UHGV virus genome: UHGV-1669857
Reading direction: 5' to 3' (one strand)
Origin: a virus
Length of the DNA stretch: 14,281 nt
In this document: piece by piece, positions 1 through 14,281 of the stretch
Position numbering within the stretch: the stretch's first letter is position 1
Layout of the letters: every line of letters starts with the position of its first letter
Notes under the pieces: generated by a model
What the model was told of the DNA's origin: nothing
The model's database searches: none
The model's input: only the letters and a program-made list of their open reading frames with translations
Program-made: the position numbers and the translations under genes

Positions 1-157
1 CAGAATAGCGCTGAGGTCTGCCTCGTGAAGAAGGTGTTGCTGACTCATACCAGGCCTGAATAGCTTCATCATCCAGCCAGAAAGTTATGGAGCCACGGTT
101 GATGAGGGCTTTATTGTAGGTGGGCCAGTTGGTGATTTTGAACTTTTGCTTTGCCAC
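1..157 (-). CDS. IS903-family transposase, N-terminal fragment; continues beyond the window start. Start codon uncertain (GTG at 155-157 or TTG at 200-202).
   Basis: Minus-strand translation reads ...(V/M)AKQKFKITNWPTYNKALINRGSITFWLDDEAIQAWYESATPSSRGRPQRYS with no stop before position 1. It is not in the ORF track because it is truncated by the window edge. Confidence 0.7.
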   Translation of the reverse strand, partial: MAKQKFKITNWPTYNKALINRGSITFWLDDEAIQAWYESATPSSRGRPQRYS

Positions 158-234
158 GGAACGGTCTGCGTTGTCGGGAAGATACGTGATCTGATCCTTC
201 AACTCAGCAAAAGTTCGATTTATTCAACAAAGCC
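1..234 (-). mobile_element. Left end of an IS903-family (IS5 family) insertion sequence; the element body lies to the left of the window. Terminal inverted repeat at 217-234.
   Basis: Reverse complement of 217-234 is GGCTTTGTTGAATAAATC, which I recognise as the IS903 terminal inverted repeat. The adjacent minus-strand reading frame encodes a transposase N-terminus. Confidence 0.85.
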
Positions 235-261
235 CCTCCAGTGCTCCAGATATTGAATGGC

Positions 262-864
262 CTATGCCTCCGGCAGTTCAGGCCAGATGACATCCGGCGC
301 GGTGCTGGTATCTGTTGCCACCACCGCGTCAATGTAATCCAGCACAGCGTTAAGTCTGGTTGTTTCTTCCTGCGTAAGTTTACGTCCGGCCTGTAATTTC
401 AGCTGAATCAGACCGACGGAATTCATTGCTGCATCAATCAGTGACTGGCGTTGGATTTCTGCCGCGTCCACTGCGGCGCTACATTGTGCCTCAGTATCCG
501 TCACCCATTTCTCACCATCCCATTTATCGTATGGTGTTAACGGGGCGATAGTGGTTGTATTTTCGGGGTAATCACCCAGAGATGTGATTTCTTTCGATTC
601 TCCTGTTTCGGTGCTATAGACCGTTTCACCGCGATGGTCTGACACATATTCCCATGAGTTTAAATCTACCGTTCGGCAGATTGCATAACCAGCTTTGTTT
701 GAGCCAGGAGCATCTAAACAGGAATGCGCCGGAATACCGACACCCACAGCAAGATACTCAGTTGATGTGGAAATATATTCCCGCGTTTCTCCGTTGTAGT
801 TATAAACGGTAATGAAGCCGGGTTCCGTGGCAATAAATTCACTGTTTAATTTTACCTGTGTCAT
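262..864 (-). CDS. G: Tail fibre assembly protein (chaperone), P2 gpG-like
   Basis: 200-aa ORF directly downstream of the tail fibre gene with a 1-nt start/stop overlap. C-terminus ...VIWPELPEA is typical of Tfa-family chaperones. Confidence 0.85.
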   Translation of the reverse strand: MTQVKLNSEFIATEPGFITVYNYNGETREYISTSTEYLAVGVGIPAHSCLDAPGSNKAGYAICRTVDLNSWEYVSDHRGETVYSTETGESKEITSLGDYPENTTTIAPLTPYDKWDGEKWVTDTEAQCSAAVDAAEIQRQSLIDAAMNSVGLIQLKLQAGRKLTQEETTRLNAVLDYIDAVVATDTSTAPDVIWPELPEA

Positions 865-2102
865 TATGCAGCCCTCACAATGTAGTTAAATGCAATGTTG
901 CGGGGGCGCGTTTCATTTCCGCCGGTGTCGCCGGTATCTCTGCCTGCATTACCGGAATAGTCGTATACAGCGCCAGTCCCTCCCCCTGCGGCATAGCCTG
1001 TAAAAAACGTAAATGAGTGGTGGTGCGCTTTAAATAAATCGGACTGCGCCGAGAGAAGCGCGCGCCCTGCATCCACCCCGCGCCCATCATCCCATCCACG
1101 AATAAACTCACCGCGTAAATCAGGTAATTTATTTGTTGGATAAGCCTTTGCCAGTTCCGGGTATTCTTCAGCAGAAAATGCCGCACCATTGCATTTCAGC
1201 CAGCCTGTTGGAGGAGTGGCTGAAGGCCACGGAACAGGTACACCAACGGGTAACGCTGAGCCTTCTCCCAAACCAAGGTATGTGAGAAGACCAGCTACAT
1301 CCTTTCCACTCAAATGAGTCAGCGTATTGTCCAGCGGTTGTTTACCTGCCAGCGCATTGTTAATGGTGGTACTGAATTTCGGGTCATTGTTAATGGCTGC
1401 GGCAATTTCTTTCAGTGTATCCAGCGTGGCAGGCGCACCGTTAATCAGAGCGGTAATAGCAGCCTGTACAAACGCAGTGGTCGCAATCCGCGTGGTGTTA
1501 TTTCCTGCGGCAGGCGTCGGCGCTTTTGGTTCTCCGGTAAATGTCGGATTATGTTTCTGTGCATACTGGGTATGAGGATCCTGTGCGGCAATGTGGTTTC
1601 TCATCTGTTCATCCACATACAGCCTTAATTCCAGGACTTCATCATCCACGTATTTACGGGTCGCCAGTACCACCGATGGGTCGATTTTCAGCGTAATAGC
1701 TTCGGTATTCGTGACAACCAGAATCATGCGGATAGTCTGGGTACGACCACTGCCTTCCTGCAACTGCGGTTTGTACGTTTCCGGGCAGTTCGCCACCGCA
1801 ATGAGTACGCCTTCATCATCATAAAGCCCAATCTCACGGATCCAGAATCCGCCCTCGTTCTCAGGGATGATTTGCTCCGCAATAATCTGGCTCTGGTTGT
1901 TCGGGTCAACACTCAGAAGATTCAGCGGTGCAATGCGTTTCTGATTAATCAGTTTTGTCTGTGCCGGGTCTGGTGTCGGCAAGACACCATTCGCATCACC
2001 AACGGCCATTTGCGTCAGATTCAGCTTACTGCCGAGCATCGTCGCGTTAGCCAGCCGTGCCGCGCCCTGATTAGTCAGAATGGCGTAGTATTTCACTGTC
2101 AT
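864..2102 (-). CDS. H: Tail fibre protein, P2 gpH-like N-terminus with a tail-collar type C-terminal domain; short form (412 aa)
   Basis: N-terminus MTVKYYAILTNQGAARLANA... matches the conserved baseplate-attachment region of P2 H as I recall it. The C-terminal region (PWPSATPPTGWLKCNG...PDLRGEFIRGWDDGRG...KAHHHSF...NYIVRAA) resembles the phage tail collar domain. Confidence 0.85.
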   Translation of the reverse strand: MTVKYYAILTNQGAARLANATMLGSKLNLTQMAVGDANGVLPTPDPAQTKLINQKRIAPLNLLSVDPNNQSQIIAEQIIPENEGGFWIREIGLYDDEGVLIAVANCPETYKPQLQEGSGRTQTIRMILVVTNTEAITLKIDPSVVLATRKYVDDEVLELRLYVDEQMRNHIAAQDPHTQYAQKHNPTFTGEPKAPTPAAGNNTTRIATTAFVQAAITALINGAPATLDTLKEIAAAINNDPKFSTTINNALAGKQPLDNTLTHLSGKDVAGLLTYLGLGEGSALPVGVPVPWPSATPPTGWLKCNGAAFSAEEYPELAKAYPTNKLPDLRGEFIRGWDDGRGVDAGRALLSAQSDLFKAHHHSFTFFTGYAAGGGTGAVYDYSGNAGRDTGDTGGNETRPRNIAFNYIVRAA

Positions 2103-2710
2103 GCGTTTACTCTCAGGTTATCAATTAAATGAATGGCCGAGGCCGGGAAATAATCCCCTCCGACAATAATGGCCTCCGGGGTGTAGGGATAAACCGTCAG
2201 GGCGTCGCCGTGATAGCATCCCGCACCGGCAAAAATGTTGCCGGTTGTACTTAAACTGATAGCCAGTCCCGTCAGATGGCGGCTTGCCGGTTTTGCATCA
2301 GCAACGAGGCGCTCCAGCTCCTGATACATTTCCTCGGTAATACCCTGCTCAAGCACGCCAACAACGATGCGGAACGTCCCCGGCTCCTCGTTGAGCTGCC
2401 ACCACTCCCTCACCTCAATCAGATAGCCGAGCGGCTCCACCACACGCCGGATTGCGCCTATAGTGCCCTTATGGCAGTGAATGAAATACGCATCGCGGAT
2501 AACAGCGCGTTTTGTCGCTTCCGGCCACTTATCATCCCAGCGGTCAACCGAAAATGACCACGCCAGCCACGGCAGCAGATTTGCCGGGCAGGTGTCCGGG
2601 TTCCACAGCTTACGAATACTGACCGGCGTTTTTTCAATTTCCGCACAGGCTTTTGCGGCAGCGACTTCAAGCGGTGATGAGCCGGTCGGCAGCAGTCGCG
2701 AATCACTCAT
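2099..2710 (-). CDS. I: Baseplate assembly protein I (P2 gpI-like)
   Basis: Position between J and H. The start may be over-extended: the ORF is 203 aa against roughly 176 aa recalled for P2 I. Confidence 0.8.
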   Translation of the reverse strand: MSDSRLLPTGSSPLEVAAAKACAEIEKTPVSIRKLWNPDTCPANLLPWLAWSFSVDRWDDKWPEATKRAVIRDAYFIHCHKGTIGAIRRVVEPLGYLIEVREWWQLNEEPGTFRIVVGVLEQGITEEMYQELERLVADAKPASRHLTGLAISLSTTGNIFAGAGCYHGDALTVYPYTPEAIIVGGDYFPASAIHLIDNLRVNA

Positions 2711-3611
2711 CCGAGCCTCCGGTCACGACGCTGTATTCGGTACAGAAAGACGCCTGCGTATTGTTGAGCACGATGTCGGCCAGCGGTGCAGCCAGTTCGA
2801 CACGCTGCACGCCTTCCACATGCAAAGCGGCATAAATGGCAGACAGTCGGATGTCGCGCCCCAGCCGGTGCTGTGCCGTGATATACGCTTCCAGTTTTTT
2901 CACGGCGGCAGCGCGAATGGGTTCGCTTTCGGGGCCAGGATAAAGGTAAAGCGTGGCATTTATCTGGTATTCAACGATGACGGCAGACTGCACGGTCACA
3001 CGGTCGGCCACCGGTCTGACGTCCTCACCATTAAGGGCGTTGCGCACCACCGCCAGCAGGTCTTCGGATGCCACACCGTTATTTTCACGTGACAGCACAG
3101 AGATGGTGACGCAGGCCGGAGACGGACTGGTGACAGAAATATCCGCGACACGCCCGTCGGCACTGCGACCATGATACTGATAGGCTCCCACCGACCCGGC
3201 GACGCTTAAGCCCTCAAACGCCTGCTGAATACGCAGACGATAATCGGTGTCAGACTCCATCACTGCCGGTGTCGGCGGGATGGTCGAATCATCTGCCGGG
3301 GTGATAATCAGGCGCGTGGTGTTGTAATTGGCACCAATCACATCAAGGTCATTACCGGCGGCACAGGCCAGCATTACCGCCCGTGCGGCCTCATTCACAC
3401 GCTGACGCCAGATAAGCTCACGATAAGCATTTTCCTCCAGCAGTTTGACGAGAGGCTCGGATTCCAGCGTCAGGGTACGGGCAACCGCCTCCTGCTGGTC
3501 TTCCGGGTAAAGGGAAATCAGTGTCGCCTTGCGTTCGGCAAGAATGGTTTCAAAGTCCAGCTCCTCGACCACATCCGGTGCGGGTAGCTGGTTCAGGTCG
3601 ATAATCGGCAT
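2703..3611 (-). CDS. J: Baseplate assembly protein J (P2 gpJ-like)
   Basis: 302 aa, same length as P2 J; sits in the W-J-I order; 8-nt overlap with I. Confidence 0.9.
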   Translation of the reverse strand: MPIIDLNQLPAPDVVEELDFETILAERKATLISLYPEDQQEAVARTLTLESEPLVKLLEENAYRELIWRQRVNEAARAVMLACAAGNDLDVIGANYNTTRLIITPADDSTIPPTPAVMESDTDYRLRIQQAFEGLSVAGSVGAYQYHGRSADGRVADISVTSPSPACVTISVLSRENNGVASEDLLAVVRNALNGEDVRPVADRVTVQSAVIVEYQINATLYLYPGPESEPIRAAAVKKLEAYITAQHRLGRDIRLSAIYAALHVEGVQRVELAAPLADIVLNNTQASFCTEYSVVTGGSDE

Positions 3612-3615
3612 GGTT

Positions 3616-3963
3616 TCAACTCACAGGGATGGTTAACGAAAGTGGCTGGCCGGTGTCGCTGTGCTGGCCGGTTAACGTGACCGTCATTCGCCCGTCAAAA
3701 CTGCGCTCAGTGGTGACGGATGACAGGGTGACGCGGGGTTCCCATTTCAGCACCGCCATGTAACAGGCGACCTTAATCTGCAACTCAAGCGCCGGGGTCT
3801 GCGGCTGGTCAATCATTGACGCCAGCAATGAGCCGTAATCACGACGCATCACCCGTGAGCCGACCGGCGTGCGCAGGATATCGCCGATACTCTGGCTGAT
3901 ATGCTCAAGGTCAGTGACAGTCAGGCCATCACTGCGATTCATTCCAAGATAACGCGCTGTCAT
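3616..3963 (-). CDS. W: Baseplate wedge protein W (gp25-like)
   Basis: 115 aa, between V and J; 4-nt overlap with V. Confidence 0.9.
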   Translation of the reverse strand: MTARYLGMNRSDGLTVTDLEHISQSIGDILRTPVGSRVMRRDYGSLLASMIDQPQTPALELQIKVACYMAVLKWEPRVTLSSVTTERSFDGRMTVTLTGQHSDTGQPLSLTIPVS

Positions 3964-4595
3964 AGAGGACTCCCGGTTGTGCCGCCGCTGTCGCCGGGGT
4001 GTTTATGGGTATGCAGTACCTTACCGTTTGATGAGAGTTCACCGCCGGTATGTTTAATGTTGCCGCGCATCGTCCCGCCCTTCTGCACTTCCAGCGTGCC
4101 GGTAATCAGTCTGTTGGTGCAGACCACCTCCGGGGTGTCCAGGGTGATGCGGGTTGACGCTTTCACCATGACCACCGGCACCGTGGCAGTAACAGAATCA
4201 GAAGCCGTCACGCTGGCCGTTTTAATTCCGCTTACCGTGAGTGCACTGGTTTCGGGTTCATACTCAATCACCGCCCCGTCAGGGAAACGGATATGCAGGG
4301 CATCCGCCGACGTAGACGGCGCGGGGTTATCGCCGGAATAAATCCCCGGCAGAACGAACGCCGTGTCGAGTTCACCGCCCACGGCCAGAATCAGCACCTG
4401 TTCCCCCACGGAAGGTGCCCACCATGTGCGCGAACGTCCGGCGCGATGGGTCAGCCACTGAAGCCAGTCGGTGCACATGCCGCCGGTCTGCACACGGCAG
4501 CGACCGGCGTTAAGGTCGGTTTCGACGATAATGCCGGTGCGGATCATGTTGCGCAGTGCGCGCGCGAGTTCCTGAATATTTGCGAGAGTGTTCAT
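3960..4595 (-). CDS. V: Baseplate central spike protein V
   Basis: 211 aa, same length as P2 V; Gly/Thr/His-rich C-terminal apex ...HTHKHPGDSGGTTGSPL. The Shine-Dalgarno sequence is weak. Confidence 0.9.
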   Translation of the reverse strand: MNTLANIQELARALRNMIRTGIIVETDLNAGRCRVQTGGMCTDWLQWLTHRAGRSRTWWAPSVGEQVLILAVGGELDTAFVLPGIYSGDNPAPSTSADALHIRFPDGAVIEYEPETSALTVSGIKTASVTASDSVTATVPVVMVKASTRITLDTPEVVCTNRLITGTLEVQKGGTMRGNIKHTGGELSSNGKVLHTHKHPGDSGGTTGSPL

Positions 4596-4661
4596 AACGG
4601 GAAGGATGCCGCCGGGTCATACCGGCGGCAATGTGCCGATGAGGTGTCGGGAATGGCACAA

Positions 4662-5114
4662 CTAACGGTCGAGGTGAGCCAGGATAATCTCTTCAATCAT
4701 CTGCACATCCTCACCGGTAAAGCCGAGCAGAGGACGCGCCGGATAATCAATTTTCTTACCGTCTTTCCGGTTTTCTTCCGACAGACCGAACTGATGCACA
4801 CTGGCGATTTTCGGCGACTTCCCGCCGTAAAACTCCATTGATGCCTGCTCCGGGCTGGCGCGGATATGCAAAAAACGACTGGTGATAAGTTTCGCAAACA
4901 TTTTTCGCTTAACGCGACCGGTCTTTTTTCTGGCGCTCTGCTGCTGGCGTGGCACGTAGGGTGTGCCGTCCGGGGCTTTCTGTGCCATCACCCGACGCTG
5001 CTGACTCTGCCGCAGACGTTTCGCCAGTTCGGCACTCAGTCGTCGACGCCCTGACGGTGACAGCGACTCAATCAGTCCGGTCAGCCGGTCTTCAAAACGC
5101 TTAAACTCATTCAT
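4662..5114 (-). CDS. S: Tail completion protein S
   Basis: 150 aa; 8-nt overlap with R; P2 gene order. Confidence 0.9.
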   Translation of the reverse strand: MNEFKRFEDRLTGLIESLSPSGRRRLSAELAKRLRQSQQRRVMAQKAPDGTPYVPRQQQSARKKTGRVKRKMFAKLITSRFLHIRASPEQASMEFYGGKSPKIASVHQFGLSEENRKDGKKIDYPARPLLGFTGEDVQMIEEIILAHLDR

Positions 5115-5574
5115 CCCACTTGCTCACCAGTTCGCCATTGATATAAAGCTCCATCGGGCGGGTGACCGGCTCCGGCGGCGTGGGTTCCGGGATATTCTTC
5201 ACATGCAGCGCGCCGTCCACCTCACTGACCAGCGTGCGCTCGGTCAGCATCAGGCTGATGCTGATATCAAAGCTGCTGTCATTGTTGATGTCTGCATAAA
5301 ACGTGAAGCCCTTTTTCTGACCTTCGTCAGTGGTCATGATGTCGGGCTGATTTTCCCGCAGCCACGCCAGCACCGGCACGATGAGCAGGTCAAAATCACC
5401 GGTAAAGTCGGTCACAATCACATTGAGCGTGTAACGCTTTTCGAACGACAGCGACGTCGCCAGCGTGGAGGCAATACTCCCGTTATCCACGAATATCCGA
5501 AGCATCTCTGGACTGGTTTTCAGCACCGTGACGGCATCAGTCAGCGCCCTGCGCAGGCTGTCGGGTTTGAGCAT
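5107..5574 (-). CDS. R: Tail completion protein R
   Basis: 155 aa; directly follows the lysis cassette as in P2. Confidence 0.9.
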   Translation of the reverse strand: MLKPDSLRRALTDAVTVLKTSPEMLRIFVDNGSIASTLATSLSFEKRYTLNVIVTDFTGDFDLLIVPVLAWLRENQPDIMTTDEGQKKGFTFYADINNDSSFDISISLMLTERTLVSEVDGALHVKNIPEPTPPEPVTRPMELYINGELVSKWDE

Positions 5575-5827
5575 CGTTTTCGTCCTGACAGTGTTTAATC
5601 ATTTTTACCTGGCTGGCACAGCGTGCCAGCGCGTTCTCAAGCTGCCGGATATCAGCACTTAAATCGCCGTTCGTCTCCGGGTCACTGCCCGGCATCGGGC
5701 AAAGGCTCACTTTCGGGCAGGCGTTGGCGACAATCACTGGCGTCGGTGCAGGCCGGGCGCTGGTGCAACCGGCGCACAGCATCAGGCAGGTCAGCACCGT
5801 ACCAGCGGCGAAAATCTTCGTTTTCAT
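5537..5827 (-). CDS. lysC: LysC, outer-membrane lipoprotein spanin (Rz1-like), nested out of frame in the 3' part of lysB and running into R
   Basis: N-terminus MKTKIFAAGTVLTCLMLCAGC carries a signal peptide and an LCAGC lipobox. The ORF is embedded in lysB in another frame, which is the P2 arrangement. Confidence 0.75.
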   Translation of the reverse strand: MKTKIFAAGTVLTCLMLCAGCTSARPAPTPVIVANACPKVSLCPMPGSDPETNGDLSADIRQLENALARCASQVKMIKHCQDENDAQTRQPAQGAD

Positions 5828-6107
5828 TCAGTAACCTCGTGATGGTTTTCTCGCGCTGTGCTTCACGCTTCGCGGCGTTTTCCAGCTCCTGACGCAGTGC
5901 CACCTGCGCCAGCTCGTTTTTGTCTGCCCTGGTGAGGGCAACATGAAGCTGATTTTTCAGCATGGTGATGGTCGTCTGCTGCCCGCTGGCGACGTTATTC
6001 GCCCTGTCCAGCGAGGCGCGCAGGCTGGCATTTTTGTGTTTCACCAGAAACAGACCGGACACCGCCAGCGATAACAACACGACCAGCACAATCATCAGCT
6101 TTGACAT
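5682..6107 (-). CDS. lysB: LysB, inner-membrane spanin (Rz-like)
   Basis: 141 aa with an N-terminal transmembrane helix (MSKLMIVLVVLLSLAVSGLFLV) followed by a charged, probably coiled-coil region. Confidence 0.85.
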   Translation of the reverse strand: MSKLMIVLVVLLSLAVSGLFLVKHKNASLRASLDRANNVASGQQTTITMLKNQLHVALTRADKNELAQVALRQELENAAKREAQREKTITRLLNENEDFRRWYGADLPDAVRRLHQRPACTDASDCRQRLPESEPLPDAGQ

Positions 6108-6520
6108 GGTTCCCGCCCCTCAAAACGCTGACGGCAGGCCGTGCGTATCAGCCGGAAAAACAGTGACGCCACGAGATAAATCAGCGCGGTAAAAATCCAT
6201 CCGGCGGCGACCAGCGAGATAAATGTCGCCACCATCACCACCAGAGCCGCCGCCCGTCTGCGCCACGGCACCGGCTGCAAAAACAGCGACGTGACAATCT
6301 TCACGGCCAGCGATTCCGGCGGCAGCTCCCGCCCGTAGCGTTCCAGCACATACTCCGTGGCATACACGCCGACACCACCGGCAACCACACAGATAACCGT
6401 CGCCAGAATCGCCCAGGCAGCGACAAAACTGACGGCCACGCTCTGCGGGTAAATCAGGGACAGTGCCAGCATCAGCGCCAGCGACACGTTCAGCATCAGT
6501 GAAAGGGATAATTTCTTCAT
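6095..6520 (-). CDS. lysA: LysA, multi-pass membrane lysis-timing protein (putative antiholin)
   Basis: 141 aa, strongly hydrophobic with several predicted transmembrane segments; located between K and lysB. Confidence 0.85.
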   Translation of the reverse strand: MKKLSLSLMLNVSLALMLALSLIYPQSVAVSFVAAWAILATVICVVAGGVGVYATEYVLERYGRELPPESLAVKIVTSLFLQPVPWRRRAAALVVMVATFISLVAAGWIFTALIYLVASLFFRLIRTACRQRFEGREPCQS

Positions 6521-6534
6521 GGTGTTTACTCCGT

Positions 6535-7032
6535 TTAAGCCGGTACGCCGCCAGCGGTACGCCAGACGGTGACCAGTTTTTCCAGTGAATGCTCACGCTG
6601 ACCGTAACCGGCACCCGGCAGGGACGCCCAGATATTGCGACAGCGTGAAATGGCGCGCTCAATGCGTCCCGCCCGGATGTCATCCAGTGCACCGCGTTCG
6701 CGGATCAACTGAATGGCAAGTCTGTCCTGTGACAACGGACTGAAATCCGGCAGGGCAAGCTGTTTGCGGTAATGCGGCCAGAACAGGTAAAGCTGCTGAT
6801 AGCGACCGGAGGCCGTGGATTTTTCACCGCGACGGTTAAACACCTTCGCCGGTCGGCCATGTGCGAACGGGTGGTCACTGTAGTCGGTGAAAATTTCCGG
6901 CTTCCCGTCCAGTCCGGTGACTATCACGTCATAGCCCCGGTTTTTCGTCAGCGGATGGTTTGCCGTCCCTTCGGACACGGCCAGCATGTCGAGAAAGGCG
7001 GCGATATTCTGATGCGTGTTAATAACCGGCAT
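6535..7032 (-). CDS. K: Endolysin (lysozyme-like murein hydrolase), P2 gpK-like
   Basis: 165 aa; immediately downstream of holin Y with a 1-nt overlap. Confidence 0.9.
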   Translation of the reverse strand: MPVINTHQNIAAFLDMLAVSEGTANHPLTKNRGYDVIVTGLDGKPEIFTDYSDHPFAHGRPAKVFNRRGEKSTASGRYQQLYLFWPHYRKQLALPDFSPLSQDRLAIQLIRERGALDDIRAGRIERAISRCRNIWASLPGAGYGQREHSLEKLVTVWRTAGGVPA

Positions 7033-7313
7033 TACGGTTTCCCCCTGCCCTTAAAGCGGCGCTGAATGGCAATCTCAATCACCTGATAACCGGCGATACC
7101 CAGCATGGAGCCGATACCGCACACCGCAGGCAGTGACAGGTCAGGAAACTGCACCAGAACAACACCGGCAACCATCGAGACAAAACCACCGAGCAACATG
7201 CGCCCGATAAACAGACGCGGGGTGATGGGTTCACCACCGGCAAGCACCTTGCCGACAACAATCAGCACCCCAATCATGAAAAGCGACAGGACGCTTTTTT
7301 CTTCTGCTGTCAT
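7032..7313 (-). CDS. Y: Holin, P2 gpY-like
   Basis: 93 aa small membrane protein with hydrophobic helices and a charged C-terminus (RRFKGRGKP). Confidence 0.9.
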   Translation of the reverse strand: MTAEEKSVLSLFMIGVLIVVGKVLAGGEPITPRLFIGRMLLGGFVSMVAGVVLVQFPDLSLPAVCGIGSMLGIAGYQVIEIAIQRRFKGRGKP

Positions 7314-7316
7314 GCG

Positions 7317-7520
7317 TTACTCCCACAGATTGACAGTTTCAGCCACGGGCGCGGTCTGAACGTCGGGCAGTTCGACGGCGGTGCCGTGTGGCAGCACCGC
7401 ACCCAGTTCAGCCAGTCCCGGATTTGCGGCGAGCACGGTCTCAACCACGCCCTCAGTGCGCCCGTAATACCGGACACAAATGGCGTCGAGCGTGTCGCCC
7501 TGTAGCGCAAAGGTCTTCAT
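7317..7520 (-). CDS. X: Tail protein X (LysM-like)
   Basis: The track ORF (7317-7589) is over-extended. The internal ATG at 7518-7520 (MKTFALQGDTLDAICVRYYG...) gives 67 aa and forms an ATGA overlap with the stop of L. Confidence 0.85.
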   Translation of the reverse strand: MKTFALQGDTLDAICVRYYGRTEGVVETVLAANPGLAELGAVLPHGTAVELPDVQTAPVAETVNLWE

Positions 7521-8029
7521 CAGATTTGACTCACGATGCAGCGCGGCTTGTCCTGGATGCGCGCCACTGCCCAGCGCATATCCCGCCACAGCTCATCAAT
7601 GGTGCTGTCAATGCTGTCGGCCTTCTTGTCGCCTTTCGCACTGGCATCCACACCGCGATAACGTTCATAAAGCGACGCGGTCGCCATCGCACACACGGCG
7701 CGCTCGTAGTAAAAAACTTTGATGCTTTCACCGTCGATGTCGTCCGCCGGGACGTCCGCCAGACGCGTAAAACCGGCGGCAATTTTCTGTTCGCGGTACT
7801 CGTACAGCTCCGCATTCGTCTCCGCCATGCCTGACTTGATGGCCTCACGCAGACGGGCGGGGGCGACGGTCTGCTCAAGGCGCATACGTTCCCGGACGCG
7901 CTTCGGGTCGATATCGGGAAAAAAGAACGTGTTTTTAATCACCGGCTCGTCGCCTGCCGGTTGCGGGATGACCACCGTACCCTCACCGGACACGGGAGCC
8001 TCCTTTCGCGGAATAATCAGCGTCATCAT
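7520..8029 (-). CDS. L: Head completion/stabilisation protein L
   Basis: The track ORF is over-extended. The start at 8027-8029 (MMTLIIPRKEAP...) is preceded by GAGG 8 nt upstream and gives 169 aa, the P2 L length. Confidence 0.9.
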   Translation of the reverse strand: MMTLIIPRKEAPVSGEGTVVIPQPAGDEPVIKNTFFFPDIDPKRVRERMRLEQTVAPARLREAIKSGMAETNAELYEYREQKIAAGFTRLADVPADDIDGESIKVFYYERAVCAMATASLYERYRGVDASAKGDKKADSIDSTIDELWRDMRWAVARIQDKPRCIVSQI

Positions 8030-8128
8030 GACTACCTCTGAAAAGTCGGGCGGTGGACGCCGGTGCAGTGTCAGGTGATTCACCCTCACTGACCGGCGTG
8101 CCGCCCTGGCGCGGGGCGCATTCGGTTG

Positions 8129-8866
8129 TTAACTGGCTTTCTTTTTCGGGCGTCCACGTTTTGCCGGGGGCGCACTCCGGGTCTTACGCGGGGCGCGGGT
8201 GACCGCTTTTGGCTCCGGCTTCGGTTTCAGCTCCCGCTCCAGTCGTTCAATCTCTTTTTTGACGCCTGCCTGACAGTCGAGCTGTGTCGCACGTTGCAGA
8301 TGCGCCAGCGCCCCTGCGGCATCACCAGCGTCACGCAGAAACAGACCGGTGATTTTGTGCAGCTTTGCGCGCACTTCATCAGGCATGTCAGCCGTGGCGG
8401 TCAGTTCAAGGGTCTCCGTCAGCAGGCGGGTATCCACAGACTCACCGGCAGCGTGAGCGCGCATGGCCGCAAGCGCGACCTCCTCGGTGAACATGTACGG
8501 CGGGGTACGGCGGTGTTTACCCGGCATGGTCAGACCGTACTTCAGGGCATAACGGGCAATCTCCAGCGCACCGGCAATATCGCCGGTATCCAGACGCCAC
8601 AGCATGACCGTCATCAGAATGTCATCCTGTGCACCTTTGCCCTGCTCCAGCACGCCGTTCACCCACGACAACCAGAACGGCAGCAGTTCGCGTTTTTTCG
8701 CGGCCTTCAGCTCTTTTGAATAAATCGCTTTCAGTGTGCGCTGGTCTGCGGCGAGCTTAACCAGCATCTGCTCATAGACAGTTGCATGTCGCAGCGGGGC
8801 GGCTTCCCGCTGCGCGGTCATCGCTGCCGAGACCCGCATCATGTGGCGCTGTGCGGGACTCGTCAT
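8129..8866 (-). CDS. M: Terminase small (endonuclease) subunit M
   Basis: 245 aa with a basic Lys/Arg/Pro-rich C-terminal tail; sits between N and L. Confidence 0.9.
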   Translation of the reverse strand: MTSPAQRHMMRVSAAMTAQREAAPLRHATVYEQMLVKLAADQRTLKAIYSKELKAAKKRELLPFWLSWVNGVLEQGKGAQDDILMTVMLWRLDTGDIAGALEIARYALKYGLTMPGKHRRTPPYMFTEEVALAAMRAHAAGESVDTRLLTETLELTATADMPDEVRAKLHKITGLFLRDAGDAAGALAHLQRATQLDCQAGVKKEIERLERELKPKPEPKAVTRAPRKTRSAPPAKRGRPKKKAS

Positions 8867-8869
8867 CGG

Positions 8870-9943
8870 TTACGCTCCCGGCTCTGCGGTCGCTTTAGCC
8901 AGTGTGGAGAAATCACCGACCTTAATTTTTTCCACCAGACAACCGGCGGCGTAGTCTTCCACCACGTAATCAATGTTCATTGACTCGTAGTTCTCCACGC
9001 GGTCGAGTTTCGGGTTTTCCTCAATCACGCGGCGATGGCTGTCATCCATGTAGTAGATGGACAGGTTTTCCAGCTTTGTGATGAGCATCGCATCCGCCGG
9101 GAAGTACGGGACGCGTACCGCCGGCAGGTTACCGATGCGTTTCTGGCTGATGATGACGTCAGCGGCCAGCATTTCGCTGTTGTCCTGCTCCTTGTTGACG
9201 ATGGGAAAATACTTGTCCGCCAGTAGCTGACGTCCCACAATCACCACAAGGTCAGGGTCTTCCTGATACCACGGCTCAATCAGGTTGTTGGTCGCATCCA
9301 TCACCAGTGCGTCAAGGCTGGCATAATCACCGCCCTTACCCACGCGGATAACCTCAGAGGTGGTGTGCCCTTCCTCGTCAGTGACCTTGCTCATCACGCG
9401 CGCCGGTGCTTCATTGCGGTATTTCTGCAGCCAGCCGACCGCCACATCCTGTAGCATCGGATTACTGCTGCGGTCAGAGGTTTCGGCACGCCTCACGCCG
9501 TTAAAACCGGCCATGATGAAATCAAGGGACTGGCGTTTGATAATGGCGTTACGGACACGGAGCTGGAAATCCTGATAACGCGCCCACAGGTCAAGCGTTT
9601 TGTAGCGGATATAAAAATCGAAGTTAATCTGGTCGCATTCGTACTTGTTTGACGCCAGCTTCGAGAAGTCCTTCGGCTGACGCTCGGTGCCACCGGCGGT
9701 GTCGCTGGTGCTGGCGATGGAGCCGGTGACACCAATACCAATTTTTTCCCCTTTCATTTCGCTGACCGGCACAATGTTGATGCGGGTCAGAAAGTCAGAG
9801 GACTCCTGCATGGTGTTCATCAGGGTCTGGGTGACCGACGGTTCAACGGTGAATTTTTTCGACACATCACCGGCGTCGATGCCGTTCAGTTCGGCAACAC
9901 GGGACAGGTAGGCATTAAATTTAAAGCGGGTTTCCTGGCGCAT
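8870..9943 (-). CDS. N: Major capsid protein N
   Basis: 357 aa, the P2 N length as I recall it; order O-N-M. Confidence 0.95.
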   Translation of the reverse strand: MRQETRFKFNAYLSRVAELNGIDAGDVSKKFTVEPSVTQTLMNTMQESSDFLTRINIVPVSEMKGEKIGIGVTGSIASTSDTAGGTERQPKDFSKLASNKYECDQINFDFYIRYKTLDLWARYQDFQLRVRNAIIKRQSLDFIMAGFNGVRRAETSDRSSNPMLQDVAVGWLQKYRNEAPARVMSKVTDEEGHTTSEVIRVGKGGDYASLDALVMDATNNLIEPWYQEDPDLVVIVGRQLLADKYFPIVNKEQDNSEMLAADVIISQKRIGNLPAVRVPYFPADAMLITKLENLSIYYMDDSHRRVIEENPKLDRVENYESMNIDYVVEDYAAGCLVEKIKVGDFSTLAKATAEPGA

Positions 9944-10001
9944 AGTTTTTCCTGAAATTAAGGGTTAATCGTGAAGGTTTTCCCGGACTGACTGACGCCG
10001 G

Positions 10002-10856
10002 TTAGCAGTTCGTCATCAGGGCGTCACCGCCACCGCCGGTGGCTTTACTGCGGCGCTGCTGGGTCAGACTTTCGGTGTGGTCGAGACTGTTTTTCAGGCG
10101 GGTGAATGCCTGACTGGTTTCATCCGCCCTGTCAGTCACATCCTGCTTAAGTGCGGAAAAGGCGGTTTCCATCTCAGCAAGGCGCTGCTCAGTGGCGCTC
10201 AGTTTTTCCTGCACATGCTCAGCGACAGCGGTCACCGCTTCATGCACGTCATTCAGACGGGCGTCATCGCTGGCCTGTTTGCGGCCAAAAATGGATTTCA
10301 CCTTTTCGGTCAGGGCTGTGAACACGGTTTCAGGCAGGTCTTCAAATTCCAGCTCAACAGGCGTTGCCACTGAAATCAGGTTTTCAGGGCTTAATTTGAA
10401 GCGGTTCAGGGGGTTGTGTTTTGCCGTGCGGCAGAATTCCAGGTATTCCGTGCCGAGGCTTGCCGGGTCATCGGTGACGGCCAGACCCACCAGATAACAT
10501 TTGCCGGTATTGGCAAAGTTCGGCTGAATTTCCATTGAGGTATAGACCTTCTGCGCGGCCTTGTTCATCGCGATAAGGTCATCGGTCGGGGTGATTTTCG
10601 CAAACAGCGCCCATTTGCCTTTCAGCGCCGAATCGTCGTCAATCTTTTCGGCCTTCAGTTCGGCCACATCACCATAACGTTTAAAAATACCGTCAGGCAG
10701 GATGCCGCGCAGATGTTCCAGGTTAATGCGGCAACCATAGACTCGCGGGTCAAAGGTTTCGGCCATTTCCTGAATATCCTGCGCACTGATGACACGCCCG
10801 TCACAGGTGTCACCCTCAACGCCGATACGAAAGAATTTTGAGACTTTTTTTGCCAT
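10002..10856 (-). CDS. O: Capsid scaffolding protein O
   Basis: The track ORF (to 10922) is over-extended. The ATG at 10854-10856 (MAKKVSKFFRIGVEG...) gives 284 aa with AGGA upstream. Confidence 0.9.
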   Translation of the reverse strand: MAKKVSKFFRIGVEGDTCDGRVISAQDIQEMAETFDPRVYGCRINLEHLRGILPDGIFKRYGDVAELKAEKIDDDSALKGKWALFAKITPTDDLIAMNKAAQKVYTSMEIQPNFANTGKCYLVGLAVTDDPASLGTEYLEFCRTAKHNPLNRFKLSPENLISVATPVELEFEDLPETVFTALTEKVKSIFGRKQASDDARLNDVHEAVTAVAEHVQEKLSATEQRLAEMETAFSALKQDVTDRADETSQAFTRLKNSLDHTESLTQQRRSKATGGGGDALMTNC

Positions 10857-11029
10857 TGTCAGGAGTCCTGAATAGTGATTAGAGGAGTCACATGTCGGCA
10901 TCAGTTTCCCGACGATGCGCATCCTCCGCCATCAGTCCCGGATGGCTTATCACTGACACAACAGCACCTTAGCGAATCGCGGGGCGCGACTAAGTAGCCT
11001 TGCCGTGTATTCATCACGGCGAGGTATTC
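10857..11029. promoter_or_regulatory. Divergent late-promoter region (leftward for the O operon, rightward for P-Q), expected to be Ogr-type activator dependent
   Basis: 173-bp non-coding spacer between divergently transcribed O and P, corresponding to the known P2 late-promoter location. I did not find an exact TGT-N12-ACA activator dyad by eye. Confidence 0.5.
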
Positions 11030-12802
11030 ATGACCATCACCACAGACACCACTCTTTTACACGACCCGCGTCGTCAGGCGGCGCTGCTGTACTGGCAGGG
11101 GTTTTCCGTGCCGCAGATTGCCGCCATGTTGAAGATGAAACGCCCGACGGTGCAGAGCTGGAAACAGCGCGACGGCTGGGACAGTGTTGCCCCCATCAGC
11201 CGTGTCGAAATGAGTCTGGAAGCGCGGCTGACCCAGCTCATCATCAAACCGCAGAAAACCGGCGGTGACTTCAAGGAAATTGACCTGCTGGGACGCCAGA
11301 TTGAACGACTGGCACGGGTTAACCGTTACAGTCAGACCGGCAACGAGGCAGACCTTAATCCGAACGTCGCTAACCGCAACAAAGGCGGGCGGCGCAAACC
11401 GAAAAAGAATTTTTTCAGTGACGAGGCCATCGAAAAGCTGGAGCAGATTTTCTTTGAGCAGTCTTTCGAATATCAGTTGCACTGGTATCGCGCCGGGCTT
11501 GAGCACCGCATCCGCGATATCCTGAAATCCCGCCAGATTGGCGCGACGTTTTATTTTTCCCGCGAGGCGCTGCTGCGCGCCCTGAAAACCGGCCATAACC
11601 AGATTTTTCTGTCGGCCAGTAAAACGCAGGCGTATGTGTTCCGTGAATACATCATCGCCTTTGCCCGTCTGGTTGACGTTGACCTGACCGGTGACCCGAT
11701 TGTCCTGGGCAATAACGGCGCAAAACTGATTTTTCTCGGCACCAACTCCAATACCGCGCAGAGCCATAACGGCGACCTGTACGTCGACGAGATTTTCTGG
11801 ATCCCGAATTTTCAGGTACTGCGTAAGGTGGCATCAGGTATGGCCTCACAGAGCCACCTGCGCTCGACCTATTTCTCCACCCCGTCCACGCTGGCGCACG
11901 ACGCCTACCCGTTCTGGTCGGGTGAACTGTTCAACCGGGGACGCGCCAGCGCCGCCGAACGCGTGGAAATCGACGTCAGTCATAACGCCCTTGCCGGAGG
12001 TCTTCTCTGTGCGGACGGCCAGTGGCGACAGATTGTCACCATTGAGGACGCCCTGAAAGGCGGCTGCACGCTGTTCGACATTGAGCAGCTCAAACGCGAA
12101 AACAGCGCCGACGATTTTAAAAACCTGTTCATGTGTGAATTTGTTGACGACAAGGCGTCGGTGTTCCCGTTCGAGGAGCTGCAACGCTGCATGGTCGACA
12201 CGCTGGAAGAATGGGAAGACTATGCGCCGTTTGCCGCCAATCCGTTCGGCTCCCGCCCGGTATGGATTGGTTACGACCCGTCACACCGTGGCGACAGCGC
12301 CGGATGCGTGGTGCTGGCACCGCCGGTGGTGGCCGGAGGTAAATTCAGAATACTTGAGCGTCACCAGTGGAAAGGCATGGACTTTGCCACTCAGGCGGAA
12401 TCCATCCGCAAACTCACCGAAAAATACAACGTCGAATACATCGGAATTGATGCCACCGGCCTCGGTGTCGGCGTGTTCCAGCTCGTGCGCTCGTTCTATC
12501 CCGCCGCGCGCGACATCCGCTACACGCCGGAAATGAAAACCGCAATGGTGCTCAAGGCCAAAGACGTTATCCGCCGTGGCTGTCTGGAATATGACGTCAG
12601 CGCCACCGACATCACCAGCTCGTTTATGGCTATCCGCAAGACCATGACCAGCAGCGGACGCAGTGCCACCTATGAGGCCAGCCGCAGCGAGGAAGCCAGC
12701 CACGCCGACCTCGCCTGGGCGACCATGCACGCCCTGTTAAATGAGCCACTCACCGCCGGTATCAGCACCCCGCTGACATCCACCATTCTGGAGTTTTACT
12801 GA
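11030..12802 (+). CDS. P: Terminase large (ATPase) subunit P
   Basis: The track ORF begins at a TTG at 11000. The real start is the ATG at 11030 (MTITTDTTLLHDPRRQ...) with GAGG 6 nt upstream, giving 590 aa. Confidence 0.95.
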   Translation: MTITTDTTLLHDPRRQAALLYWQGFSVPQIAAMLKMKRPTVQSWKQRDGWDSVAPISRVEMSLEARLTQLIIKPQKTGGDFKEIDLLGRQIERLARVNRYSQTGNEADLNPNVANRNKGGRRKPKKNFFSDEAIEKLEQIFFEQSFEYQLHWYRAGLEHRIRDILKSRQIGATFYFSREALLRALKTGHNQIFLSASKTQAYVFREYIIAFARLVDVDLTGDPIVLGNNGAKLIFLGTNSNTAQSHNGDLYVDEIFWIPNFQVLRKVASGMASQSHLRSTYFSTPSTLAHDAYPFWSGELFNRGRASAAERVEIDVSHNALAGGLLCADGQWRQIVTIEDALKGGCTLFDIEQLKRENSADDFKNLFMCEFVDDKASVFPFEELQRCMVDTLEEWEDYAPFAANPFGSRPVWIGYDPSHRGDSAGCVVLAPPVVAGGKFRILERHQWKGMDFATQAESIRKLTEKYNVEYIGIDATGLGVGVFQLVRSFYPAARDIRYTPEMKTAMVLKAKDVIRRGCLEYDVSATDITSSFMAIRKTMTSSGRSATYEASRSEEASHADLAWATMHALLNEPLTAGISTPLTSTILEFY

Positions 12803-13836
12803 TGAGCAAGAAAAAAGGGAAAACACCGCAACCTGCGGCCAAAAAAATGACCGCCAGCGCCCCGAAAATGGAAGCATTCACCTTTGGCGAGCCGGTACCG
12901 GTACTCGACCGCCGTGACATTCTGGATTACGTCGAGTGCATCAGTAACGGCAGATGGTATGAACCACCGGTCAGCTTTACCGGTCTGGCAAAAAGCCTGC
13001 GTGCTGCCGTGCATCACAGCTCACCGATTTACGTCAAACGTAATATTCTGGCCTCAACATTTATCCCGCATCCGTGGCTTTCCCAGCAGGATTTCAGCCG
13101 CTTTGTGCTGGATTTTCTGGTGTTCGGTAATGCGTTTCTGGAAAAGCGTTACAGCACCACCGGTAAGGTCATCAGACTGGAAACCTCACCGGCAAAATAT
13201 ACCCGTCGTGGCGTGGAGGAGGATGTTTACTGGTGGGTGCCGTCCTTCAACGAGCCGACACCTTTCACGCCCGGCTCCGTGTTTCACCTGCTGGAGCCGG
13301 ATATCAATCAGGAGCTGTACGGCCTGCCAGAATATCTGAGCGCCCTTAACTCTGCCTGGCTGAATGAGTCGGCCACGCTGTTCCGCCGCAAGTATTACGA
13401 AAACGGCGCTCATGCCGGATATATCATGTACGTCACCGATGCCGTGCAGGACCGCAACGATATCGAAATGCTTCGCGAAAACATGGTTAAGTCGAAAGGC
13501 CGCAACAACTTTAAAAATCTGTTTCTCTATGCCCCGCAGGGGAAAGCTGACGGCATTAAAATTATCCCGCTCAGTGAAGTGGCAACGAAGGACGATTTTT
13601 TTAATATCAAAAAAGCCAGCGCCGCTGACCTGCTGGACGCGCACCGCATCCCCTTTCAGTTGATGGGCGGCAAGCCGGAGAACGTCGGGTCACTGGGCGA
13701 TATTGAGAAAGTGGCAAAGGTCTTTGTCCGCAATGAGCTTATCCCGTTACAGGACAGGATTCGGGAAATAAACGGCTGGCTCGGTCAGGAGGTCATCCGC
13801 TTTAAAAACTACTCACTGGACACTGACAACGGCTGA
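12802..13836 (+). CDS. Q: Portal protein Q
   Basis: 344 aa; ATGA overlap with the stop of P; the gene next to cos, as in P2. Confidence 0.95.
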   Translation: MSKKKGKTPQPAAKKMTASAPKMEAFTFGEPVPVLDRRDILDYVECISNGRWYEPPVSFTGLAKSLRAAVHHSSPIYVKRNILASTFIPHPWLSQQDFSRFVLDFLVFGNAFLEKRYSTTGKVIRLETSPAKYTRRGVEEDVYWWVPSFNEPTPFTPGSVFHLLEPDINQELYGLPEYLSALNSAWLNESATLFRRKYYENGAHAGYIMYVTDAVQDRNDIEMLRENMVKSKGRNNFKNLFLYAPQGKADGIKIIPLSEVATKDDFFNIKKASAADLLDAHRIPFQLMGGKPENVGSLGDIEKVAKVFVRNELIPLQDRIREINGWLGQEVIRFKNYSLDTDNG

Positions 13837-13841
13837 ACATC

Positions 13842-13863
13842 GCCGCCTGCGGGCGGCTTTTTT
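13842..13863 (+). terminator. Rho-independent terminator downstream of Q
   Basis: GCCGCC-TGCG-GGCGGC stem-loop (13842-13857) followed by TTTTTT (13858-13863), 6 nt after the Q stop codon. Confidence 0.8.
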
Positions 13864-14005
13864 ACACCCCGTCATCACGCCCTCACACGCTCACCACAGC
13901 ACAAAACATCCCGCAAACACACCAACACCCCAACGGGCAGACTAAACGCCGCCACGACGCGCTCAGACGCTGAAAAAATAAAATCAGCACCACCGCCAGC
14001 GCGCA

Positions 14006-14024
14006 GTGCTTTCCCCGCCTCGCC
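14006..14024. other. P2-type cos site: 19-nt cohesive-end sequence
   Basis: Plus strand GTGCTTTCCCCGCCTCGCC, whose reverse complement GGCGAGGCGGGGAAAGCAC is the P2 cohesive end as I recall it; sits about 170 bp beyond Q, as in P2. Confidence 0.8.
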
Positions 14025-14166
14025 CGCCCGCTTCATGGGTCGGTTTGAATGCAGTTGAATTACAACTACCAAACCAAGCAATCCCTACTATTACGCAGAA
14101 AATGCATACTGAAATACCTCGTGCAAATTGATGCAGCTAAGTATGCATAGGTTTTATGCCTCAACG

Positions 14167-14281
14167 GGCTTTGTTGAATAAATCAGATTTCGGGTAAGTC
14201 TCCCCCGTAGCGGGTTGTGTTTTCAGGCAATACGCACGCTTTCAGGCATACCTGCTTTCGTCATTTTGTTCAGCGCTCGTA
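14167..14281 (-). mobile_element. End of a second IS903-family insertion sequence (the end nearest the transposase C-terminus); element body lies to the right of the window. Terminal inverted repeat at 14167-14184.
   Basis: Plus strand 14167-14184 is GGCTTTGTTGAATAAATC, the same inverted repeat as at 217-234 in opposite orientation. The minus strand encodes a transposase C-terminus. Confidence 0.85.
14223..14281 (-). CDS. IS903-family transposase, C-terminal fragment; enters from beyond the window end
   Basis: Minus-strand translation ...RALNKMTKAGMPESVRIA then stop at 14223-14225, matching the IS903 transposase C-terminus as I recall it. Confidence 0.7.
   Translation of the reverse strand, partial: RALNKMTKAGMPESVRIA

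Follow-up and report, generated by a model that had tools for sequence, protein, structure and literature searches.

The window considered here is the whole of a 14,281-nt stretch of viral DNA (UHGV virus genome UHGV-1669857), in which late genes of a P2-like phage lie between the ends of two insertion sequences (ISs) of the IS903 group. It is best explained, with a probability of about 0.9, as the central 13.9 kb of a complete and ordinary Escherichia coli P2-like (Peduovirus-type) prophage that carries IS903-group insertions at two dispensable loci. On the right, a copy of IS903B (IS-B) would have inserted 142 bp past the cohesive-end site, cos, giving the 9-bp duplication GCCTCAACG. On the left, a different isoform (IS-A) would stand beside the fibre chaperone gene, joined to the loss of an invertible segment of ~1.33 kb. 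Both elements would be passengers at places where a P2-like phage tolerates change, and the genome from which the window came would share the far sides of the two elements seen in near-identical genomes. The situation is ordinary and of an already known kind. There is no sign that the block between the ISs behaves as a unit, and it is no new kind of element.

The IS ends and the near-identical prophages

The 18-bp terminal inverted repeat of IS903, GGCTTTGTTGAATAAATC, occurs in exactly two copies in the window, at 217–234 on the minus strand and at 14167–14184 on the plus strand (0 expected), and the two exact copies face outward. IS-A occupies 1–234 (minus strand) with its left (IRL) end, IS positions 1–234, and is 100% identical to positions 1–234 of annotated IS903B read in reverse. 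IS-B occupies 14167–14281 (minus strand) with its right (IRR) end, IS positions 943–1057, which correspond to the final 115 bp of IS903B in reverse. The two elements are directly oriented on the minus strand, and their bodies run outward past the window edges. The transposase parts in the window are the N-terminal ~67 codons for IS-A (202–1) and the last ~19 codons for IS-B (14281–14223). The terminal repeats and the identity to IS903B bear out an earlier note on this DNA, made from the sequence alone, which had described both edges in this way. Its account of the content also stands: open reading frames (ORFs) and Pfam families confirm that the 13.9 kb between the elements holds cos and the head, lysis, baseplate and fibre genes, and that no tail sheath, tube and tape-measure genes or early genes lie within the window.

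Full copies of 1,056 bp (IS-A) and 1,057 bp were found in near-identical genomes, although the window itself holds only 234 + 115 bp of IS sequence. The transposase genes of both elements are intact in relatives, each coding for a 322-aa protein of the IS5 family (NF033579 at 351 bits, with a cutoff of 140). The first 235 bp of IS-A are identical to IS903B, the rest is ~86% identical and the overall identity is 89.6%. IS-A is an established IS903-group isoform, distinct from IS903B and not a local hybrid, because its closest full-length relatives elsewhere in E. coli are 98.3% identical to it. The existence of these relatives also led to an on-the-spot hybrid of two different ISs being dropped as a candidate. 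The first 235 bp are identical or nearly so (≤1 difference) among the IS903-group copies compared. The lengths of IS sequence at the two window edges were also considered as points at which isoforms diverge. The left edge fits (234 bp, first difference at 236) but the right (115 bp) does not do so cleanly, and this idea was not relied on.

Isolate assemblies with the same prophage were found through look-ups with the terminase, I and J proteins. Loci L028 (GCA_033121805.1) and L029 (GCA_053655555.1) are 100% identical to window 1030–14281. L025, on a 130.9-kb contig (GCA_025095635.1), has two mismatches (99.985% identity), and L026 and L047 are two views of one 5.1-Mb contig (GCA_974498165.1) that is 99.96% identical to the window. 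L038, on a 63.6-kb contig (GCA_053654915.1), matches window 1–12710 save for 23 mismatches, all within 748–1016. Every near-identical contig that crosses an IS runs on into the P2 regions missing from the window (L025, L026/L047, L027 and L038). Thus, the FI-FII-E-T-U-D-ogr and int-C-cox-B-A blocks of the P2 map are present in near-identical assemblies, and would be present in the source of the window as well.

The 23 substitutions that separate the window from L038 and L047 cluster at the start of the chaperone gene tfa and the tip of the fibre gene H. Their clustering points to a short patch of recombination in the part that binds the receptor. When the exact H and tfa proteins were looked up, metagenome contigs alone were returned, because the isolate genomes differ in this patch.

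The position of the window edges, inside ISs, would follow if the window is a whole short-read or metagenome contig that was broken at multi-copy repeats. A single E. coli genome can hold IS903-group elements at up to 47 places. The same region is carried by a 14,040-bp metagenome scaffold (ENA ERZ28596799, JIEZ17-1_SAMEA104142363 scaffold_1906), which was fetched for window 180–12102 and, where compared (180–3000), is 100% identical. Its left end lies ~55 bp into the left IS, and the length of the scaffold suggests that the other end reaches about as far into the right IS. In addition, a Logan contig stops 30 bp into IS-B. The terminase allele of the window was found in 32 index blocks, in 24 of which the longest contig carrying it was 10–20 kb. 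Assemblies of this prophage habitually give a ~14-kb piece. Since contigs break at multi-copy IS repeats, the absence of sheath, tube, tape-measure and early genes is uninformative; the content would be late-only because the window stops, not because the genome is without those genes. The case also carries a caution: when a short-read or metagenome contig shows a phage block 'bracketed by IS copies', that block is in most cases simply what was assembled from one repeat to the next.

Insertion sites beside cos and the fibre genes

IS-B sits between Q/cos and gene A, 142 bp past cos, and homology to uninterrupted P2-like relatives reaches 14166. In L025, a full 1,057-bp IS903B has the perfect 9-bp duplication GCCTCAACG on both sides, and beyond it lie a cargo gene coding for a 610-aa DUF7380 protein, gene A, B-region genes, cox, C and int. 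In L025, then, IS-B has simply inserted, and the early region around it is intact. What comes after the same IS in L026, L027 and L028 is a 1,342-bp Acyl_transf_3 segment. L026 (13138–16593) has the order GCCTCAACG, IS903B, acyltransferase, IS903B, GCCTCAACG, which is a 3,456-bp composite with a 9-bp duplication. The acyltransferase of this composite has no NCBIfam or PADLOC match. The source of the window probably has the composite form at IS-B, because the 115 bp of IS-B in the window are those of the first IS of the composite (L026 and L028), with one mismatch (IS position 977) to the IS of L025.

The cargo gene of L025 (14213–16045) matches the PADLOC candidate defence family PDC-S39 (E = 1.8e-84), and the same DUF7380 gene is split into ORFs of 349 aa and 248 aa in L026. 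Rousset et al. (PMC9122126) describe the gpA–gpQ locus as a variation hotspot, for which 18,150 P2-like loci of E. coli gave 1,650 arrangements.

On the left, homology to uninterrupted P2-like prophages runs up to window 235–237. Between G and FI, relatives have an invertible fibre segment of the Gin/Cin type. It is made up of a second chaperone gene (tfa'), another fibre tip and an invertase of the resolvase family, and in L002, L003 and L036 tfa' is annotated as convergent with tfa. IS-A is located 27 bp past the tfa stop codon, within the last 56 bp of tfa', with the junction at 234/235 and the flank CCTCCAGTG. In L038 and L047, the gene order is I, H (412 aa), tfa, IS (322-aa transposase), FI, FII, E, T, U, D and ogr, after which comes the E. 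coli chromosome. The far side of IS-A (TTGGCCTGT...) consists of the last 86 bp of the invertase gene and the 60-bp spacer before FI, and is 98–99.7% identical to intact relatives. Compared with L036, 1,334 bp of the invertible segment are gone, namely tfa', the other fibre tip and the greater part of the invertase.

In L038 and L047, no target duplication flanks IS-A, as CACTGGAGG is found on one side and TTGGCCTGT on the other; the inner flank CCTCCAGTG likewise differs from the reverse complement of TTGGCCTGT. The far side that a simple insertion would predict (tfa', CCTCCAGTG and the IS end) was not found in any complete E. coli genome. The missing duplication is consistent with an adjacent deletion or with recombination between ISs, and the 1.33-kb deletion would have come from an IS903-type adjacent deletion or from recombination between two IS copies. 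Adjacent deletions by IS903 are described as common, and both routes are known to yield IS copies without duplications (PMC11708052).

The fibre would be locked in one orientation, because no more than 56 bp of tfa' and 86 bp of the invertase gene are left beside IS-A. The loss should have no further effect, since many P2-like prophages are naturally without the invertible segment (L033–L035, L037 and L040). Both ISs lie in the two dispensable, variable loci of this phage type, the invertible fibre segment and the cos-to-A locus, which are shown here as insertion-tolerant places of P2-like phages. Among other IS events in P2-like prophages, IS66 stands between H and tfa' (L032), ISEc12 lies within the scaffold gene O (L021) and tfa' has an IS903-group element at a different site (L022).

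The fibre gene H is a mosaic of a P2-type N-terminus and a C-terminal tip (864–1187, the last 108 codons) that is 100% identical to a contig with Mu-like tail genes (L005/L024). The identity extends over the 1,008 bp of window 180–1187, which hold 55 bp of the IS, the 27-bp spacer, tfa and the end of H, and a mismatch map places the beginning of all differences at 1188. Typical P2-like relatives are only ~86% identical in the fibre tip and chaperone region. The same junction of tfa and IS, at the same nucleotide and in the same orientation, is found in gtrABC-carrying Mu-like-tail prophages of three complete E. coli genomes (L010, L011 and L023), located beside argW in GDSC2239PM and MB30 and close to dacD in DLI.6n. 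In these prophages the IS has no duplication (CTTCATGGC vs CCTCCAGTG) and abuts a truncated native chaperone gene. This IS is a mosaic in its turn, with 99.7% identity to IS903B over the final 389 bp.

It has long been established that P2, Mu, P1 and other phages exchange fibre tips and chaperones horizontally. The cassette found here extends this theme, as fibre-tip and chaperone genes with an IS attached occur in prophages of unrelated types. IS903-group copies might have served as movable arms of homology by which co-resident prophages exchange host-range cassettes, and the IS beside the chaperone gene would then be more than a passenger. This suggestion is tentative and on balance doubtful; repeated insertion of the IS at a preferred target could account for the sharing instead. 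A role of ISs as homology arms in cassette exchange may deserve a systematic look.

Alternative explanations

Certain points weigh against an intact prophage with two IS insertions. The far sides of the window source are deduced from other assemblies, which are 99.8–100% identical. The loci fetched for the left far side (L038 and L047) differ from the window in the 23-nt fibre-tip patch, and none is 100% identical. In addition, a simple insertion does not account for IS-A, which is without a target duplication.

The first and third of these points also speak for a deletion remnant, one of the possibilities raised in the earlier note, in which FI–ogr and/or A–int would have been lost from the source genome and the head, lysis, baseplate and fibre genes left between the ISs. 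The left IS does border a deletion of 1.33 kb, and real IS-bounded truncations of P2-like prophages exist. One of these is L048 (GCA_046589655.1), where a P2-like prophage is cut after the invertase by an IS6-family/DHDPS/IS6 structure (14866–20909), followed by chromosomal genes. Still, the missing P2 regions, FI...ogr on one side and A...int on the other, follow directly in every near-identical contig that crosses an IS, every gene in the window is intact, and the deletion that is observed takes only a dispensable module that many P2-like phages naturally lack. A remnant is therefore very unlikely. The reading that is supported by the near-identical genomes is the one that the same note had listed as IS insertions in an otherwise intact prophage, with the qualification that IS-A stands beside the ~1.33-kb loss. 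The note had expected two simple insertions to have, beyond each IS, the neighbouring P2 genes and a 9-bp duplication. On the right, both are found in near-identical genomes, with the cargo gene and A...int behind the IS. On the left, FI...ogr is behind the IS but the duplication is missing. The Z/fun side that was expected beyond the left IS does not apply, because this phage type has no Z/fun gene and the invertase segment takes that position.

A composite-transposon-like unit carrying a packaging origin, also proposed in that note, would have been mobilised by the two directly oriented ISs, or would exist as an excised circle of one IS and the 13.9 kb. Identical 18-bp terminal repeats in direct orientation on both sides of the block and the intact transposase genes of relatives are in keeping with such a unit, and a circular path is formally possible when both contig ends run into one repeat family with consistent orientation. 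The flanks tell otherwise. The inner flanks differ (CCTCCAGTG vs GCCTCAACG), and the outer flanks form no duplication around the 13.9 kb, with ACAGGCCAA left of IS-A (L038/L047) and GCCTCAACG or ATCAGTCAA right of IS-B (L025/L026), whereas IS-B has a duplication of its own. The two elements are different isoforms that share only their first 235 bp exactly, the block is without replication genes, and among the places of the terminase allele that were shown each IS-crossing contig stays in the same P2 context; the unit was found at no second genomic location. Insertion of one IS into a 13.9-kb circle is ruled out, as the inner flanks are not a duplication, and any circle joining 14166, an IS and 235 could only be a recombination product for the same reason. 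Both junctions occurred together on no record among 5,426 complete E. coli genomes or 72,556 plasmids. For the right junction, BLAST against the 5,426 genomes gave no match crossing it, and exact-pattern scans gave 0 in IMG/VR, the GTDB representative genomes and a metagenome contig collection. For the left junction, the scans gave 0 in IMG/VR and GTDB, it was absent from plasmids, and the only contig in the metagenome collection that carried it was the Mu-like-tail contig NODE_2240. A mobilised unit or circle is highly improbable.

An assembly chimera would place the left ~1 kb of the window (fibre tip, tfa and IS junction) in a co-resident Mu-like-tail prophage, misjoined through shared fibre sequence. 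The complete identity of window 180–1187 to a Mu-like-tail contig of another sample and the same junction in the prophages of three complete genomes would both be expected from such an error, and two short contigs, L007 (246–1187) and L008 (228–1143), resemble collapsed repeats bounded by branch points. The same P2 join of H, tfa, IS and FI, however, is present in isolate assemblies, including the 5.1-Mb and 63.6-kb contigs of L047 and L038, and an independent metagenome scaffold (scaffold_1906) has the same join. A chimera at the shared fibre tip is largely refuted by L038 and L047, and there is hardly any likelihood left for it.

The genome of P2, and its packaging capacity, is 33.6 kb. With its ISs, the prophage is estimated at ~31–34 kb, which is not above P2, and it may be packageable by size.

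Gene content and comparison with known systems

Between the IS ends, 235–14166 (13,932 bp) contain a P2-type late region in reverse orientation and cos. The minus strand carries tfa/G, H, I, J, W, V, S, R, lysC/B/A, K, Y, X, L, M, N and O, and the plus strand P and Q, so the divergent arrangement of Q and P against O-N-M-L-X-Y-K-lysABC-R-S-V-W-J-I-H-G, with matching protein families, is that of a P2-like phage. All of the 20-odd genes are intact, with lengths equal to those of intact homologues, and the DNA is 96–97.6% identical to many P2-like phages and prophages of E. coli, Salmonella and Yersinia. Pfam families were taken from a 100%-identical contig and from exact-protein look-ups, and the RefSeq names of the lysis genes were borrowed from relatives.

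The left part of the region begins with the remnant of tfa', the alternative tail-fibre-assembly gene from the invertible segment that once lay here. Its last 56 bp remain (235–290, plus strand) and overlap the end of tfa. The tail fibre assembly chaperone tfa, P2 G (262–864, minus strand as are all genes up to O), is a 200-aa protein with Caudo_TAP_N/Caudo_TAP on the identical protein. The tail fibre H (864–2102, 412 aa) contains Phage_tail_fib and Collar. The baseplate genes, with families from the 100%-identical contig, are I (2099–2710, Tail_P2_I), J (2703–3611, Baseplate_J), W (3616–3963, GPW_gp25) and V (3960–4595, Phage_base_V/spike), and the tail completion genes are S (4662–5114, Phage_tail_S) and R (5107–5574, P2_Phage_GpR). 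The lysis cassette (5537–7313; Pfam LysC, LysA and Phage_holin_3_2) is composed of lysC (5537–5695/5782), lysB (5682–6107), lysA (6095–6520), the endolysin gene K (6535–7032) and the holin gene Y (7032–7313). Further genes are X (7317–7520, Phage_tail_X), head completion L (7520–8029, Phage_GPL), small terminase M (8129–8866, Phage_term_smal), capsid N (8870–9943, Phage_cap_P2) and scaffold O (10002–10856, Phage_GPO_N). On the plus strand, large terminase P (11030–12802, Terminase_5/6N/6C) and portal Q (12802–13836, Phage_portal) were assigned by exact-protein look-up.

Beside Q, the 19-nt P2 cohesive-end sequence of cos, GGCGAGGCGGGGAAAGCAC, has a single exact match at 14006–14024 (minus strand; 0 expected). 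The phage records MET_P1_103_31, S164 and HQ103 begin or stop exactly at window 14024. The first part of the variable cos-to-gene-A cargo locus occupies 14025–14166, with the IS-B target GCCTCAACG at 14158–14166. The homology of most relatives fades at ~14054–14067, and a few (30EVA1 type) reach 14166.

P2-like prophages were also seen in plasmid records. L003 (NZ_CP025141, the IncC conjugative plasmid KP1768_p1 of Klebsiella) holds a complete integrated P2-like prophage, from ogr to int, with a reverse-transcriptase cargo gene. By match only, a 13.9-kb late-region match (96.9% identity) is found on plasmids of ~204–210 kb from Enterobacter, Citrobacter, Providencia and E. coli (hits H41–H52). 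In L004 (NZ_CP146689, E. coli MS 198-1 'plasmid unnamed2', 66.8 kb), mdtC, baeSR, yegQ and the gat operon surround a P2-like prophage, and this record is probably a mislabelled chromosome fragment.

Among known systems, the 13.9-kb block resembles a Tn903-type composite in having two IS903-group elements around other DNA, and a real, small composite of this type, with an acyltransferase between two copies of IS903B, is present at the right-hand site of relatives. Tn903 has inverted IS903 copies around about 1 kb (aphA1). In contrast, the copies around the 13.9-kb block are direct and belong to two isoforms, no duplication flanks the whole, and only one genomic context was seen. The elements themselves resemble IS903 and IS903B in their 18-bp terminal repeats, length of 1,056–1,057 bp and single 322-aa DDE transposase, and IS-B also in its 9-bp duplication; IS-A differs as an 89.6% identical isoform without a target duplication. 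Relatives of the window carry convergent tfa and tfa', an alternative tip and an invertase between G and FI, as in Gin/Cin/Pin-type segments (Mu G, P1 C and e14 P), whereas the prophage type of the window keeps only the short tfa' and invertase-gene ends around IS-A. An IS903-group insertion in tfa' of GPEC1189 is an analogue of IS-A.

The closest parallel as a whole is with P2 and P2-like (Peduovirus) phages such as the 30EVA1 prophage (NZ_CP138423), pro483 and Salmonella phage MET_P1_103_31, which have the same gene order and 19-nt cos. Relatives of this kind are 96–97.6% identical over 83–97% of the window, and the remaining P2 map is also present in genomes near-identical to it. Unlike typical P2-like relatives, the prophage of the window has a divergent fibre tip and chaperone allele, a deleted invertible segment and two or three IS903-group elements. 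A similar case is the prophage of EC9952 (NZ_CP104595, L001, at yegQ/yegR), which is otherwise intact and P2-like and has an IS in each of the same two accessory regions: ISEc12 in the invertible segment and, beside cos in the cos-to-A cargo locus, IS903B (duplication TCGTTTGGG). It differs in that the insertion sites are others, the fibre-side element is ISEc12 and the invertible segment is kept.

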